A DNA stretch of 64,000 nucleotides from Escherichia coli (GCF_044324875.1 NZ_CP172185.1), one strand, 5' to 3'; numbered from the stretch's first letter, positions 29,646 through 34,901 are shown. Translations and numbers: made by a program. The notes: generated by a model not told the origin, from the sequence alone.

Positions 29646-30599
29646 TTACAATAGCTCTCTGGCTGCCGCCACAATATCTTGCGCGGTTAACCCGTACTCT
29701 CTCTGTAAAAAGTCCTGAGTTCCAACCTGGCCATACCGCTCTTTAACCCCCACCCGACGCATGGGCACAGGACAAGTTTCTACAAGCACTTCAGCAACCG
29801 CTGAACCTAATCCATTATGAATACTATGGTTTTCACATGTTACGATCCGTCCTGTTTTTTCGGCATAATTTTTAATTAACATCCGATCAACGGGTTTGAG
29901 CGTAAACATATCAATCACCGCTACACTTACCCCAGCCAGCTCAAGTTGACGTGCGGCCTCCAGGGCTTCCACCACCATAATGCCATTAGCAATTAAGGTG
30001 ACATCCGTACCTTCACGTAATACCTGCCCTTTGCCAATTGTAAAGGTTGTACCTGGTGCGTAAATACTCGCTGCTTGCTTCCGAATGGTACGAATCCAAT
30101 AAAATCCTTCCAGTGCAACGAGTTGACGCAAGATATCGCTGAACATTACGGCATCTGTCATCTCCATCACCACCGAATGCGCCAGCCCGCGCACAATTCC
30201 CATATCTTCAAATGACATATGTGTTCCGCCATTGTGGCAAGCAGCAACACCCGCATCAGAAGCTATAACTTTGACGTTAGCGCCCTGGTAATCAAGCGAC
30301 ATAAAGAGTTGATCAAAACAGCGACGACTGGCAAATGCGGTAAAGGTATGCACGAATGGCTTGCGCCCGGTTAAGGCCAGCCCTGCAGCTGTGCCGATAA
30401 CATTGGCTTCCATAATGCCGCAATTAATGACGTGATCTGGATAATCCTGCGCCACGCTGTCCATTGCCATGGAACTCATTAAATCAGCCTCAAGAGCAAT
30501 GACAGAACTGACGTTTTTACTCTGTTGCGCGATAAAATCTGCATAAACTTTGCGCATTTCAATGCTGTCTTTTTGTCCTGCCGGTGCGAGATTAATCAT
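29646..30599 (-). CDS. Transketolase, C-terminal subunit (split transketolase)
   Basis: 317 aa, pyrimidine-binding/C-terminal transketolase domains; overlaps the upstream N-terminal subunit gene. Confidence 0.85.
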   Translation of the reverse strand: MINLAPAGQKDSIEMRKVYADFIAQQSKNVSSVIALEADLMSSMAMDSVAQDYPDHVINCGIMEANVIGTAAGLALTGRKPFVHTFTAFASRRCFDQLFMSLDYQGANVKVIASDAGVAACHNGGTHMSFEDMGIVRGLAHSVVMEMTDAVMFSDILRQLVALEGFYWIRTIRKQAASIYAPGTTFTIGKGQVLREGTDVTLIANGIMVVEALEAARQLELAGVSVAVIDMFTLKPVDRMLIKNYAEKTGRIVTCENHSIHNGLGSAVAEVLVETCPVPMRRVGVKERYGQVGTQDFLQREYGLTAQDIVAAARELL

Positions 30600-31422
30600 G
30601 CATATCCTCCAGTTGGCGAATTGTTTCGTTTAGCGTCCCCTTCATCTCTTCTGTGAGGCGTAAGTGATGAGAATTACTGAGTTGCTCGAGACACGGCACC
30701 CCCTGCCCTTTAATGCTATCGAGAATGACCACTCTCGGTCTGGCCTCAGCTGGCAGGACAGGTTTAACTACATTCAACAAGCCCTCAATATCATCGCCCT
30801 TCACTGTCACGACATCAAAACCGAAAGCCCGGAATTTTCCTTCCAAATCAAATGGATTAATAATTTCATCCAGTTGACCATCAAGCTGCTGTTTGTTCCA
30901 GTCCACAAACACAGTGAGGTTATTCAAACGATGATGCGCGATAAACTGGAAAGCTTCCCAACATTGGCCTTCATTAAGTTCGCCATCGCCGACAATACAA
31001 AAAACCCGATTCTTGCGCCCCGCCAGTTTATGCGACAGCGCCATCCCTCCGGCAATGGATATCCCCTGCCCCAGCGATCCTGTGGTGCTATCAACACCAC
31101 ACGTTTTTAGCCGATCCGGATGACTTGGTAAGCGGGTTCCGTTCTGATTTAAGGTGCTTAATTCTTCCAGTGGAAAGTAGCCTTTCAGCGCCAGAGTACT
31201 GTAGAGAGCAGGTCCGGCATGTCCTTTGGACAGGATAAAATAGTCACGCTCAGGCCAGTCGGGAGCAGCAGGATCAATTTTCATTACAGCGCCATAAAGC
31301 ACTGCCAGCGTTTCCACAACCGACATGCTGCCACCATAATGACCGAAGCCGAGATGAGTTAATGATTTAAGCGTCTGGATACGTATATCCCGTGCAAATT
31401 GAGTCAATTCTTTAACATTCAT
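30592..31422 (-). CDS. Transketolase, N-terminal (thiamine-diphosphate-binding) subunit
   Basis: 276 aa; GHAGPALY and GDGELNEG motifs. Confidence 0.85.
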   Translation of the reverse strand: MNVKELTQFARDIRIQTLKSLTHLGFGHYGGSMSVVETLAVLYGAVMKIDPAAPDWPERDYFILSKGHAGPALYSTLALKGYFPLEELSTLNQNGTRLPSHPDRLKTCGVDSTTGSLGQGISIAGGMALSHKLAGRKNRVFCIVGDGELNEGQCWEAFQFIAHHRLNNLTVFVDWNKQQLDGQLDEIINPFDLEGKFRAFGFDVVTVKGDDIEGLLNVVKPVLPAEARPRVVILDSIKGQGVPCLEQLSNSHHLRLTEEMKGTLNETIRQLEDMHD

Positions 31423-32813
31423 GATTTGGCTCCGCTCTTCTTCTGCGCTTTGGCAGCGATTTTGTTACTGGCGAAAATGTTCCAGGCAACCAGCAGCACA
31501 AATAGCGCTACTACAAGTCCGGTGATGGCAAAAGGTGAGAGATAACGTGCCAGGTTTCCGAGGACGATGCCGACAGCACCAAAATCTGCATCGGAAAAGG
31601 TCGTATTAGCAAAGCCTATCGCCCCAAGAACCGGCAATAACAGTACTGGCAGGAAGGTAATCAATAAGCCATTCGCAAAAGCACCAATCATTGCGCCACG
31701 ACGTCCCCCCGTAGCGTTACCAAATACGCCAGCAGCCGCCCCGGTAAAAAAGTGAGGAACGACACCCGGAAGAATCAACACCAGTTTCATCTGTCCCAAC
31801 AAAAATAGCCCTACCAGACCGCCAAAAAAGCTAAACAAGAAACCAACTAACACTGCGTTTGGCGCATACGGATACACAACCGGGCAATCGAGGGCCGGAC
31901 GGGCATTCGGCACCAGCTTTTCTGAAAACCCGGTAAATGCCGGAACTATTTCAGCAAGGATTAAACGCACGCCTTGCAGAATAATAAATACACCAGCAGC
32001 GAAGGTGATGGCCATTATGATGGCGTAGACAAGGTAGTTTTGACCACCACTGAACTGGCTTTCAACGAACTCACGACCAGCACTGATCGCCATGATCAGA
32101 TAAATCACCATCATCGTAAGAGAAATAGAGATGGAACTGTCGCGCAGGAAGCTCAGATTTTTGGGCAAATTCATCTCTTCGGTGGAGCGGGAACCTTTAC
32201 CGCACACGCTGCCAATCCAGCCAGAAAGTACATATCCCAGAGTGCCAAAGTGACCAAAAGCAATGTCATCATTCCCCGTAATACGCTTCATATAGCGTTG
32301 TGCTAATGCCGGGAAAAATGCCATCACAAGTCCCAGAATAAGAGAACCGGTAAAGACCAGTGATATACCTTCAAAACCAGCCACTGTCAGAATCACACCA
32401 ATCATGCAGGCCATGTAAAATGTGTGGTGTCCGGTCAGGAAGATATATTTAAGGCGGGTAAAGCGGGCAACAATAATATTCGCCACCATACCAAATGCCA
32501 TAATAAGGGCCGTCGATGCGCCATATTTTTCCAGCGCAATAGAAACAATAGCCTCATTATTCGGAATGATGCCCTGAATATTAAAGGCATGTTCAAACAT
32601 ACTCCCAAGAGGATTTAACGAACCAACCAAAACAGTGGCACCACCGCCCAGTACAATAAAGCCGAGAATAGTTTTAATTGTACCTTTAACAACATCTGAA
32701 AAAGATTTTTTCTGGGCAACCAGACCAATTAAGGCAATCAAGCCGACCAGTATCGCGGGCACTTTAAGTATATCAACAACAAAATTCAGCGTTTCAAGGA
32801 TAAACATATCCAC
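31419..32813 (-). CDS. PTS ascorbate-family EIIC component (UlaA/SgaT-like)
   Basis: 464-aa polytopic membrane protein of UlaA-like architecture; stop overlaps the transketolase start. Confidence 0.85.
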   Translation of the reverse strand: MDMFILETLNFVVDILKVPAILVGLIALIGLVAQKKSFSDVVKGTIKTILGFIVLGGGATVLVGSLNPLGSMFEHAFNIQGIIPNNEAIVSIALEKYGASTALIMAFGMVANIIVARFTRLKYIFLTGHHTFYMACMIGVILTVAGFEGISLVFTGSLILGLVMAFFPALAQRYMKRITGNDDIAFGHFGTLGYVLSGWIGSVCGKGSRSTEEMNLPKNLSFLRDSSISISLTMMVIYLIMAISAGREFVESQFSGGQNYLVYAIIMAITFAAGVFIILQGVRLILAEIVPAFTGFSEKLVPNARPALDCPVVYPYAPNAVLVGFLFSFFGGLVGLFLLGQMKLVLILPGVVPHFFTGAAAGVFGNATGGRRGAMIGAFANGLLITFLPVLLLPVLGAIGFANTTFSDADFGAVGIVLGNLARYLSPFAITGLVVALFVLLVAWNIFASNKIAAKAQKKSGAKS

Positions 32814-33630: not shown

Positions 33631-33881
33631 CCCCTAATTTCTTATTTATATGACCAGAATGTATTCAAGTAACGACGGTATATCTGCGATCAATATCACA
33701 AAGATAGCGCTATCAGGAGGTATTGTTCGAATTTGTGATAGCGCTATCAAAATAGATTTCACTGATTAAATCCAGACTTATGGCAGATATTAAGAGGTAT
33801 ACTCTGCTACTGGCAGTGCAGGAAGCCGTTGATGATAAGTAATAAAAGATCTCCATATGTAGTCGCTGAGCAGGATTTTGT

Positions 33882-34901
33882 ATGGCAATAACCCGAAAAC
33901 GTCGTAGTACAGGTAAAGTCACTATTGCTGATGTCGCGCAACTCGCGGGAGTTGGCACAATGACTGTATCCAGAGCGTTACGCACTCCCGAACAAGTTTC
34001 AGATAAATTGAGGGAGAAGATTGAAGCCGCAGTTAATGAATTAGGGTATATGCCCAACCTCACTGCAAGCGCACTGGCATCGGCATCTTCACACACGATC
34101 GCAATGGTCGTGCCAAACCTGGCTGAAGCGGGATGCACGGAAATGTTTGCCGGGCTGCAACATGTGCTACAACCAGCGGGGTATCAAATAATCCTGGCTG
34201 AGTCACGCCATCGTCTGGAACAAGAAGAAAAACTGCTGGAAACCCTGCTGGCTTCTAATATCGCTGCAGCAATTTTGCTTAGTGTTGAGCATAATAGTAC
34301 CGTGCGTCACTTGCTCAAAAATGCCTCGATTCCTGTTATAGAAATCGGTGCCATTCGTACTGATCCGATAGATATCAACATTGGTATTGATAATGTTGCA
34401 GCAATGTTCGAGCTGACGGATATGCTGGTACAACGTGGTTATCAGAATATCGGTTTGCTATGCGCTAACCAGGAACAGTGGATCTTTCAGCAGCATTTAC
34501 AGGGATGGTATAAAGCTATGTTACGCCATCATATGTCTCCCAACCGTGTTATTAACGCTGCTCTGCCACCTGTTTTTTCCACCGGAGCATCACAACTACC
34601 GGAATTTTTGCTCGCATGGCCGGAACTGGATGCCCTGGTATGTGTGTCAGATGAGTTAGCCTGCGGTGTTCTCTATGAATGTCAACGAAGACGGATCAAA
34701 GTTCCAGACGAGCTCGCCGTAGTAGGATTTGGTGACAGTGACGTCAGCAAAGTTTGCCAACCATCATTAACAACAATGGCCGTTCCTCACAGGAAAATTG
34801 GTCTGGAAGCAGGAAATGTTTTGCTGGAACGAATTAAAGAAGGTAACTGGAGCAATCAGATATTCATTGAGCCCTGTTTATGTTTACGTGAAAGCTGCTG
34901 A
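33882..34901 (+). CDS. LacI-family transcriptional regulator
   Basis: 339 aa; N-terminal HTH VTIADVAQLAGVGTMTVSRAL and periplasmic-binding-protein-like core; divergent from the PTS/transketolase operon. Confidence 0.85.
   Translation: MAITRKRRSTGKVTIADVAQLAGVGTMTVSRALRTPEQVSDKLREKIEAAVNELGYMPNLTASALASASSHTIAMVVPNLAEAGCTEMFAGLQHVLQPAGYQIILAESRHRLEQEEKLLETLLASNIAAAILLSVEHNSTVRHLLKNASIPVIEIGAIRTDPIDINIGIDNVAAMFELTDMLVQRGYQNIGLLCANQEQWIFQQHLQGWYKAMLRHHMSPNRVINAALPPVFSTGASQLPEFLLAWPELDALVCVSDELACGVLYECQRRRIKVPDELAVVGFGDSDVSKVCQPSLTTMAVPHRKIGLEAGNVLLERIKEGNWSNQIFIEPCLCLRESC

Follow-up and report, generated by a model that had tools for sequence, protein, structure and literature searches.

The window, a stretch of 64,000 nucleotides of Escherichia coli DNA (GCF_044324875.1, NZ_CP172185.1), carries at 29646-34901 an intact six-gene sugar-uptake module made up of a three-part phosphotransferase system (PTS), a two-piece transketolase and a predicted repressor. 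As a preliminary description had stated, five tightly packed co-oriented genes face a divergent LacI-family gene: the ORF listing places EIIA, EIIB, a SgaT/UlaA-type EIIC and the transketolase N- and C-subunits (TktN and TktC) on the minus strand and the regulator on the plus strand. All six genes are full length relative to their orthologues, and every Pfam assignment (PF00359, PF02302, PF03611, PF00456, PF02779+PF02780 and PF00356+PF13377) is full-length and scores far above its gathering cut-off.

29646..30599, minus strand: transketolase C-terminal subunit, 317 aa, pyrimidine-binding and C-terminal domains (PF02779, PF02780)
30592..31422, minus strand: transketolase N-terminal (thiamine-diphosphate-binding) subunit, 276 aa (PF00456, E=1e-46)
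31419..32807, minus strand: PTS EIIC permease of the SgaT/UlaA (L-ascorbate, TC 4.A.7) family, 462 aa (PF03611)
32830..33102, minus strand: PTS EIIB, 90 aa (PF02302, E=1.5e-16), RefSeq start
33181..33624, minus strand: PTS EIIA (EIIA-2, mannitol/fructose/ascorbate type), 147 aa (PF00359, E=2.7e-34)
33882..34901, plus strand: LacI/GalR-family regulator, 339 aa (PF00356, PF00532, PF13377)

All the parts that had been marked as seen proved right, and the start codons were the only correction. Following the RefSeq gene calls on identical E. coli DNA and the pattern of N-terminal conservation across 75-80 orthologues, the first ORF bounds of EIIC (31419-32813), EIIB (32830-33150) and EIIA (33181-33630) were revised to starts at 32807 (462 aa), 33102 (90 aa) and 33624 (GTG, 147 aa), respectively, and a GGGGG stands 7-8 nt upstream of the EIIA GTG. 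EIIC and TktN overlap by 4 nt (ATGA) and TktN and TktC by 8 nt. Comparison with E. marmotae gave dN/dS values of 0.05-0.12 for all six genes, indicating purifying selection. The locus is recognisable and largely ordinary. Public genomes already carry its annotation and counterparts of it have been investigated, which makes the finding mostly confirmatory.

The PTS and the split transketolase

PF03611 matches EIIC over model positions 1-394 of 394 (E=4e-153), and EIIC is homologous to the UlaA structures 4RP8 and 5ZOV (177 and 170 bits). Together with the separate PF02302 EIIB and PF00359 EIIA encoded alongside, this gives the module both the fold and the partner proteins of the PTS L-ascorbate (SgaT/UlaA) family, TC 4.A.7. 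Cys7 of EIIB lies in the N-terminal MKIMAICGSGLGSS motif (MKIMAICGSG; N-terminus at least 80% conserved in 78 orthologues) and His66 of EIIA within AMPHARPE (at least 80% conserved in 79 orthologues), and by analogy with UlaB and UlaC we take these two residues to be the phospho-sites. The earlier term "ascorbate-type" thus stands as a family label and not beyond it, given the distance of EIIC from UlaA and the absence of ascorbate-pathway enzymes alongside. What speaks for L-ascorbate specificity is a name-level match to the NCBI equivalog NF009549, 'PTS ascorbate transporter subunit IIC' (989 bits, cut-off 890), a model that was probably built from the orthologue group of this EIIC and named by homology; RefSeq likewise names EIIC an ascorbate transporter. 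EIIA and EIIB fall far under the ascorbate equivalog cut-offs (113 vs 187 and 28 vs 138). We agree with the preliminary description that the substrate is not deducible from sequence.

The best solved relatives of TktN and TktC are the N chain of 6YAK (E=3e-64) and the C chain of 6YAJ/6YAK (E=1e-70), respectively. In TktN, His28, His68, His101, the GDG(146)...N(175) Mg/ThDP motif and His252 align with human TKT and are kept in 77 orthologues, so that with Asp146, Asn175 and these four histidines in one chain, the cofactor-activating Glu64 in the C chain and the two genes adjacent, the pair has the cofactor and catalytic residues of a split transketolase. The sugar-phosphate pocket departs from the canonical one: TktC retains the Arg pair and Ser (Arg16, Arg173 and Ser43, besides Glu64), but Asp115 replaces the phosphate-binding His416 of human TKT (E. 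coli His461) and Asn123 replaces the stereo-determining Asp424 (E. coli Asp469), each substitution being invariant in 75 orthologues. The family label therefore holds, while canonical substrate recognition is not to be assumed.

The signature Asp115, His122, Asn123 places TktC in a large non-canonical clade (motif D...xN..H vs canonical H...ED..H), and the pocket changes are common to its nearest ~60 representative clusters. Two distant D-H-N-H members of the clade were examined. One, from a low-GC bacterium, lies in an identical five-gene operon IIA-IIB-IIC-TktN-TktC; the other is accompanied by a sugar ABC transporter and a xylulokinase-type kinase (TIGR01312, 441 bits, cut-off 380), these and both transketolase genes being the whole locus. 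Both distant loci consist of uptake, phosphorylation and transketolase, and nothing else.

The intergenic control region

Predicted operators, a CRP-like site and candidate promoter elements lie between the divergent genes, and a candidate terminator follows the regulator.

33685..33700, minus strand: predicted CRP-like site TGTGATATTGATCGCA, one base downstream of O2
33702..33715, no strand assigned: predicted operator O2, TG(A/G)TAGCGCTATCT, one mismatch to the palindrome
33722..33750, minus strand: sigma-70-like promoter candidate of the PTS-transketolase operon, TTGATA-17-AACAAT, consensus scan, 9/12
33736..33749, no strand assigned: predicted operator O1, perfect 14-bp palindrome TGATAGCGCTATCA, invariant in 66/66 orthologous regions
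33798..33803, plus strand: TATACT, candidate -10 of the LacI-family gene, in a conserved intergenic block also present in Salmonella
34902..34927, plus strand: candidate terminator-like hairpin and T run directly 3' of the regulator stop, pattern scan, consensus match

Within the intergenic alignment, no block is more strongly conserved than O1. O2 was found in 66/69 orthologous regions at 34-36 bp from O1, with position 3 alone varying. At no more than two mismatches the palindrome has three matches in the window vs 0.23 expected by chance; the third, at 12094, is unrelated. The regulator has the N-terminal HTH and the periplasmic-binding-protein-like effector domain of the LacI/GalR family, and the palindromes, its predicted binding sites, show the central CG that goes with such proteins and are conserved across species. 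The CRP-like site is present in 65 of the 69 orthologous regions: TGTGA-N6-TC(A/G)CA is exact in 35, and 30 more have at most one mismatch per half-site. The candidate operon promoter has its -35 inside O1 and a poorly conserved -10, and on its own it is weak evidence, because the total count from the promoter scan of the intergenic region was not above that of shuffled controls; no promoter here is well supported. Downstream of the transketolase genes no terminator was detected.

Distribution and genomic setting

Of 5426 complete E. coli genomes, 132 (2.4%) carry the module, and in each of them the identity is at least 99%. The copy in the window lies in an IS-littered island adjoining the core cadCBA region, next to cadC, and is flanked by IS remnants, an adhesin gene and integrative-element genes, with pseudogenes also around. 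In other species the module occupies a fixed chromosomal site between pta/yfcC and yfcD, a position that the window copy, with its unrelated flanks, does not share. These three observations uphold the earlier view of an accessory, horizontally acquired module. Among 80 loci with enough sequence for the comparison, drawn from about 80 Enterobacterales species, 75-78 keep the gene order, and since essentially all of them have these six genes arranged alike, the arrangement is not due to chance.

Homology to the E. marmotae chromosomal copy spans 29645-34905, in agreement with the outer coordinates first drawn for the module, and homology to the native locus ends at both outer stop codons. The copies closest to the window module lie on the chromosomes of sister Escherichia species (E. 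marmotae, 91.9% nt), so the source lies within the genus and is no distant donor. Sister Escherichia species and most Enterobacteriaceae keep this locus at pta/yfcC-yfcD; the E. coli module is an additional, mobile copy of it. The best 15 matches in E. coli genomes include no disrupted copy; one genome has an IS3 inside the matched span.

Proposed pathway, alternatives and related systems

We consider it probable that the locus is a self-contained, repressor-controlled catabolic module in which the PTS imports and phosphorylates a carbohydrate and the transketolase uses the product directly. Phosphate would pass from EIIA through EIIB to the SgaT-type EIIC as the carbohydrate, most likely a ketose or a keto/sugar acid, is imported and phosphorylated. 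The split transketolase is heteromeric, and its genes follow directly downstream with translational coupling; it would then take the phosphorylated product as two-carbon donor or acceptor, and carbon would in this way reach the pentose-phosphate and glycolytic pools without the need for another dedicated enzyme. In the absence of inducer, the LacI-family protein would hold the operon off from the two 14-bp palindromes 34 bp apart, and the nearby CRP-like site would provide catabolite control. What we infer is that the genes are co-transcribed, that the LacI-family protein represses them, that CRP acts on the operon and that the transketolase uses the PTS product. Uptake with pentose-phosphate entry, as the preliminary description had proposed, is consistent with the conserved order, the overlapping codons, the purifying selection and the gene pairings of the distant relatives. 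PTS loci without transketolase occur at vpe and in a Gilliamella relative, suggesting that this permease type is not strictly dependent on the enzyme.

More tentatively, and with the odds somewhat against it, the enzyme may belong to a specialised clade (His to Asp, Asp to Asn) that acts on the PTS product itself by cleaving or extending it, rather than being a spare general transketolase. If so, the module would be a minimal two-step pathway, import with phosphorylation followed by ketol transfer, for a carbohydrate new as a PTS substrate; a free ketose (xylulose, sedoheptulose, erythrulose) or a keto-sugar acid would be candidates, and its identity would also explain the infection phenotypes of Salmonella tktC/pagR and E. 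coli vpe. The primary paper on Salmonella TktC reportedly found it able to back up the general pentose-phosphate transketolases, and TktC may therefore be a generalist, a point against the pathway that we favour.

That the module is instead a second PTS for L-ascorbate (or isoascorbate/dehydroascorbate), with the core Ula enzymes making xylulose-5-phosphate from ascorbate-6-phosphate and the linked transketolase adding capacity, appears unlikely to us, although it would be the simpler reading. The NF009549 match, the RefSeq name and a layout like that of UlaABC favour it, as do UlaA His135 and Asp314, presumably ascorbate ligands, which align with identical residues in EIIC. However, EIIC has Tyr opposite UlaA Gln139 and lies far from UlaA in sequence, its partners score below the equivalog thresholds, the regulator is of LacI type and not UlaR (DeoR-type), and none of the 80 loci has lactonase, decarboxylase or epimerase genes in the module. 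We give equally little credence to a third general transketolase of the pentose-phosphate pathway for stress or infection, beside a PTS and regulator that serve mainly in signalling or virulence and not in one catabolic pathway. In its favour, Salmonella has three transketolases, is avirulent only when all three are lost and regulates tktC like tktB, according to papers citing Shaw et al. 2018. PagR, the LacI-family regulator STM2345 (PMC12413039, PMC7808427), is reported to activate SPI-2 upon low Mg2+ and low phosphate, and vpe mutants show capsule and colonisation phenotypes. Yet SPI-2 is absent from E. coli, leaving a PagR-like protein there without this target, and from most of the ~80 species in which the strict order and the PTS-transketolase translational coupling are kept; the invariant predicted operators precede the PTS operon itself; and the non-canonical pocket, with clade-mates in dedicated sugar loci, argues against a general transketolase.

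Least probable of all, and in our judgement very unlikely, is passive island cargo, silent in E. coli or lacking a usable substrate and hitch-hiking with virulence or fitness genes. The low frequency, the nearly identical copies and the IS remnants and pseudogenes around fit such cargo, and because the E. coli copies are nearly identical, selection within E. coli is not measurable. Against it stand six intact frames, the retention of operators, CRP-like site and ribosome-binding sites, and the lack of disruption in the best 15 matches. Should the catabolic module be the right reading, it would offer a compact portable route feeding one sugar straight into central metabolism, and its scattered occurrence among E. 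coli of avian, animal and human origin would point to a nutrient specific to certain niches. The locus further provides a ready-made operator/repressor pair for an inducer search, a transketolase clade whose altered pocket residues may confer useful or new substrate specificity, and a cross-species link through which the Salmonella tktC/pagR and E. coli vpe results can be read together.

Among known systems, E. coli UlaABC (4RP8, 4RP9, 5ZOV) has the PTS family and the three-polypeptide organisation in common with the module, EIIC aligning over ~390 residues, but the similarity is distant, and the module has another regulator family and no ula catabolic genes. The Carboxydothermus hydrogenoformans split transketolase (6YAK/6YAJ) shares the two-chain architecture and the cofactor-binding residues, whereas its pocket is canonical (THAG...GEDGASH in 6YAJ, SDAG...CHNGGTH in the window TktC). 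Accessory carbohydrate/transketolase genes likewise occur on extraintestinal E. coli islands as Tkt1 (the 16-kb island of APEC O1) and CFT073 c3405-c3410. Neither is this locus: Tkt1 is described as TktA-like, 68% identical to Vibrio cholerae TktA and on a different island, and c3405-c3410 is a maltose/glucose-type PTS cluster.

Two closer relatives, the Salmonella tktC/pagR counterpart and the E. coli paralogue vpe, had been overlooked in the preliminary description. The vpe locus of uropathogenic strain AL511 (Martinez-Jehanne et al. 2012) is island-borne and laid out like the module, its EIIA-EIIB-EIIC genes (EIIC of SgaT type) pointing away from one for a LacI-family protein, and by sequence comparison the module is a paralogue of it. 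Identities of 63% (EIIC), 48% (EIIA), 43% (EIIB) and 43% (regulator) led us to reject the module as vpe itself. Unlike the module, vpe lacks a transketolase, has a shorter EIIC (418 aa) and adjoins the deoK operon, which is absent beside the window module; it is also far commoner, with a vpe-type EIIC match in ~1300 of 5426 genomes.

The Salmonella enterica counterpart was verified by sequence and context. Lying between pta-yfcC and yfcD, it fits STM2340-STM2345 (tktC, PTS, PagR), the gene numbers being matched from position and papers, not from the LT2 record. The Salmonella locus is chromosomal, whereas the window copy sits in the island next to cadC. The six genes agree in order, orientation and protein length (317/276/463/90/147/339 aa), with identities of 85% for TktC, 88% for TktN, 93% for EIIC, 94% for EIIB, 72% for EIIA and 87.6% for the regulator, and the two loci share both the transketolase motif ASDAGVxACHNGGTH and the operator palindrome.

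Gene content and island setting

The ORF listing of window 27000-38000, from which the gene coordinates are taken, together with full-length Pfam matches, confirmed the five co-oriented PTS and transketolase genes and the divergent LacI-family gene of the preliminary description. The starts of EIIA, EIIB and EIIC were revised according to the RefSeq annotation of identical E. coli DNA and the N-terminal conservation of orthologues.

Genes of the module (window positions; all Pfam matches full-length)
29646-30599, minus strand: transketolase C chain (pyrimidine-binding and C-terminal domains), 317 aa
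30592-31422, minus strand: transketolase N chain (N-terminal thiamine-diphosphate domain), 276 aa
31419-32813 (ORF; start revised to 32807), minus strand: EIIC-GAT/SgaT permease, Pfam E=4e-153
32830-33150 (ORF; start revised to 33102), minus strand: PTS IIB
33181-33630 (ORF; start revised to 33624, GTG with GGGGG upstream), minus strand: PTS EIIA-2
33882-34901, plus strand, divergent: regulator with LacI HTH and sugar-binding domain, 339 aa

The two transketolase genes overlap by 8 nt, as do the EIIC stop and the transketolase start by 4 nt, and the module has a G+C content of 45.8%. A 5.7-kb region around the locus recurs at 100% identity in many E. coli chromosomes, including those of the avian pathogenic strains APEC IMT5155 and APEC O2-211, and most of this region is present in only 132 of 5426 complete E. 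coli genomes. With the EIIC gene alone as query, the same 132 genomes were found at no less than 99% identity, and about 1300 further genomes at 60-80%.

In both the window and IMT5155, the neighbors of the locus comprise IS66, IS3 and IS110 remnants, a TonB-dependent receptor, an orphan UgpB-like binding protein, a second PTS regulated by RpiR, a YadA-like adhesin, and ProQ/FinO, YagK/YfjJ, antirestriction and RadC-like genes typical for integrative islands. Window 48573-63104 is E. coli core (cadC, cadB, cadA, dtpD, lysU, dcuS, dcuR, dcuB). Given these island-type neighbors and the core genes from 48573 on, the module belongs to a genomic island that borders cadC on its right side. In K-12 the pheU tRNA adjoins cadC; neither a tRNA (ARAGORN and pattern search) nor a pheU 3' end was found in the window, so the island attachment site is not visible there.

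The right island end (44187-47768) carries the usual integrative-element gene set, with a RadC/JAB-like gene (44187-44663), two small ORFs (45644-46012 and 46043-46513) resembling, as judged by eye, a CbeA/CbtA (YeeU/YeeV)-type antitoxin-toxin pair, and a 261-aa ORF (46983-47768) immediately before cadC. Comparison of window 37962-42700 with 28547-41749 of the IMT5155 DNA revealed that the window lacks a segment with IS3, IS256, the siderophore receptor gene ireA and IS2, and the regions adjoining that segment are only 87-95% identical; the island is therefore a mosaic between strains. Window 15001-40000 is covered to at least 80% by only 49 genomes. Literature searches for an island with ireA and transketolase found nothing.

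A second accessory sugar locus (22208-25443), which resembles the published description of CFT073 c3405-c3410, lies on the same island.

Genes of the second sugar locus (RefSeq names from near-identical DNA)
22208-23032, minus strand, divergent: MurR/RpiR-family regulator
About 23198-24754: maltose/glucose-type PTS EIIC(B)
24754-25443: N-acetylmannosamine-6-phosphate 2-epimerase

The YadA-like trimeric autotransporter adhesin (27160-28473, 437 aa) has internal near-repeats, including a 22-residue segment present twice. Its region differs between the window and IMT5155, in which 80 bp of the window sequence (27728-27807) align at two positions; this suggests repeat copy-number variation. The left part of the window holds a defense gene (7188-8099, 303 aa; phosphorothioated-DNA-binding restriction endonuclease, NF045808, 440 bits with a cut-off of 180). 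Another carbohydrate locus (1406-6329) encodes a glycoside/pentoside symporter of the GPH family, a member of the xylose-isomerase family scoring 785 bits to NF003998, and a protein of 559 aa that is weakly similar to arabinanase.

Predicted regulatory sites between EIIA and the regulator gene

Alignment of 69 orthologous intergenic regions revealed two outstanding conserved blocks, both copies of the palindrome TGATAGCGCTATCA, which has the TGnnAnCGnTnnCA shape of LacI-family operators.

Predicted features of the intergenic region
33685-33700: CRP-like site (predicted), TGTGATATTGATCGCA, one base after O2
33702-33715: predicted operator O2, one mismatch to TGATAGCGCTATCA, invariant except one position
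33736-33749: predicted operator O1, perfect TGATAGCGCTATCA, invariant in 66/66 regions
33750-33722, minus strand: candidate sigma-70-like promoter TTGATA-17-AACAAT, -35 element within O1
33798-33803, plus strand: candidate -10 element for the regulator gene, conserved TATACT

At up to two mismatches the palindrome has three matches in the window, one of them unrelated (12094), with 0.23 expected by chance, and the O1-O2 spacing is 34-36 bp across the orthologous regions. TGTGATATTGATCGCA resembles a CRP site; the pattern TGTGA-N6-TC(A/G)CA is exact in 35 of the 69 regions, and in 30 others each half-site deviates by no more than one base. A combined scan for promoters and terminators detected no more matches than in shuffled controls; the promoter calls rest mainly on conservation. 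The -10 element of the TTGATA-17-AACAAT candidate is poorly conserved, and one alternative is a CRP-dependent promoter further downstream. An Rfam scan of 28500-36000 yielded no credible RNA element, its single match (E=0.48) being below gathering.

Substrate clues and the transketolase pocket

By score, EIIC qualifies for an NCBI equivalog model with ascorbate in its name, and it is only distantly related to the crystallized UlaA; EIIA and EIIB fall far under the ascorbate cut-offs, and no ascorbate-pathway enzymes were found linked to the locus. For the regulator, the best partial matches, all below cut-off, are GntR (gluconate regulator) and IdnR (idonate regulator), a weak hint toward sugar acids. 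We agree with the preliminary description that the substrate is not deducible from the sequence, as no feature of the locus pins it down.

Alignment with human transketolase and the split enzyme 6YAK revealed the canonical residues of the N chain (His28, His68, His101, GDG(146)...N(175) and His252). The C chain retains Arg16, Ser43, Glu64 and Arg173, corresponding to human Arg318, Ser345, Glu366 and Arg474. Asp115 occupies the position of human His416 (E. coli His461), which binds the substrate phosphate, and Asn123, preceded by His122, that of human Asp424 (E. coli Asp469), which contacts a sugar hydroxyl and sets stereoselectivity. These C-chain residues are invariant across 75 orthologues and also present in Salmonella.

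Among 1.8 billion representative proteins searched, the nearest 60 or so clusters (35-77% identity) have the motif SD(A/P)G...xNGGTH in common, and the canonical H...(E/P)DG..H occurs in more distant split transketolases. Among the listed C-chain homologues (P0121-P0270) there are at least two pocket classes, the canonical one and a large D...xNGGTH class that occurs in dedicated sugar loci, and several further variants (Y...N/D, S..., M...). The gene context of the clade with Asp and Asn includes DeoC-type aldolase, Zn-dehydrogenase, sugar ABC transporter, DeoR regulator and sugar isomerase-like genes. One low-GC bacterium has the same IIA-IIB-IIC-TktN-TktC operon (EIIC 58% identical), in another bacterium the two transketolase genes are accompanied only by genes for a sugar ABC transporter and for a xylulokinase-type kinase that exceeds the TIGR01312 cut-off, and one contig was too short to inform on context. 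Mainly because this pattern of uptake, phosphorylation and transketolase recurs, we propose that the transketolase would act directly on the phosphorylated import product. Literature searches for an apulose transketolase found nothing.

Relatives, native site and known systems

An EIIC scan with one genome per species gave 232 relatives, of which the best 80 were kept. Among these, EIIC identity is 97% in Escherichia albertii, 91-94% in Klebsiella, Raoultella, Enterobacter and Citrobacter, and 83-88% in Serratia, Rahnella, Hafnia and Erwinia. By tblastn with the six window proteins, essentially all loci with enough sequence among the best 80 have the complete six-gene arrangement, transketolase being absent only from a Gilliamella locus. 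Clustering of flanking ORFs revealed one chromosomal site for the module in these species, with pta-ackA on one side (yfbV, yfbU and yfbT beyond) and yfcD, yfcE, yfcF, yfcG and yfcH on the other; the order in E. marmotae is pta, yfcC, module, yfcD. Homology between the window and the E. marmotae locus spans 29645-34905 (91.9% nt identity) and ends exactly at both outer stop codons, with no flanks in common. At the nucleotide level the module matches the E. albertii copy at 85.7% and those of Klebsiella, Citrobacter and Salmonella at about 75%, and the closest regulator homologues outside E. coli are those of E. marmotae, E. whittamii and E. albertii (95-96%). Since its nearest relatives belong to sister Escherichia species, we regard the E. 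coli copy as an Escherichia-type allele moved onto the island rather than one acquired from a distant genus. Against the E. marmotae copy, all six genes have dN/dS values of 0.05-0.12, indicating purifying selection. Divergence from that copy is uneven, with the EIIB gene at 97.8% nt identity (dS 0.08) and the transketolase C-chain gene at only 87.2% (dS 0.61), which suggests past recombination inside the module.

The tktC-PTS-pagR module of Salmonella and the E. coli carbohydrate permease locus vpe have both been described before, and all of the genes are routinely annotated. Hits at about 67% DNA identity proved to be vpe, where, in agreement with its published description, a LacI-family gene is divergent from EIIA-EIIB-EIIC (418 aa) and adjoins the deoK deoxyribose operon. 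Unlike the window module, vpe has no transketolase, and with protein identities of 63% (EIIC), 48% (EIIA), 43% (EIIB) and 43% (regulator) it was rejected as the identity of the module and is a paralogue. Tkt1 of APEC O1 was also rejected, being a TktA-like protein on a different island, as was CFT073 c3405-c3410 (PAI-metV) as a PTS and transketolase cluster, since it is published as a maltose/glucose-type PTS.

A first homologue search with the regulator returned Escherichia proteins only, and Salmonella was reached through a profile built from orthologues in Citrobacter, Klebsiella and Enterobacter, which retrieved a Salmonella enterica regulator representing a 1396-member cluster. Its contig has the order ackA, pta, a DcuC-family gene, transketolase C chain (317 aa; 85% identical to the window protein) and N chain (276 aa; 88%), EIIC (463 aa; 93%), IIB (90 aa; 94%), IIA (147 aa; 72%) and a divergent LacI-family gene (339 aa; 88%), followed by a NUDIX gene and then yfcE onward. 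The operator palindrome is also present. This arrangement fits the LT2 numbering, with STM2337 as ackA, STM2338 as pta, then STM2339, STM2340-41 as tktC, STM2342-44 as the PTS and STM2345 as the regulator; the assignment of STM2340/2341 to tktC is presumed from positional fit, and a look-up of supplementary data yielded no annotation for STM2340. In published work STM2345 is named PagR and described as a LacI-family regulator that activates SPI-2 and whose inducing conditions are low Mg2+ and low phosphate (PMC12413039, PMC7808427, PMC12351708). As summarized in papers citing Shaw et al. 2018, Salmonella has three transketolases, a strain without all three is avirulent, and tktC is regulated like tktB. 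The overall reading of the locus as an acquired module for sugar uptake and pentose-phosphate entry was judged sound, and on the basis of gene order and protein identity we identify it as the enterobacterial tktC-PTS-pagR module in a copy that E. coli carries on an island.
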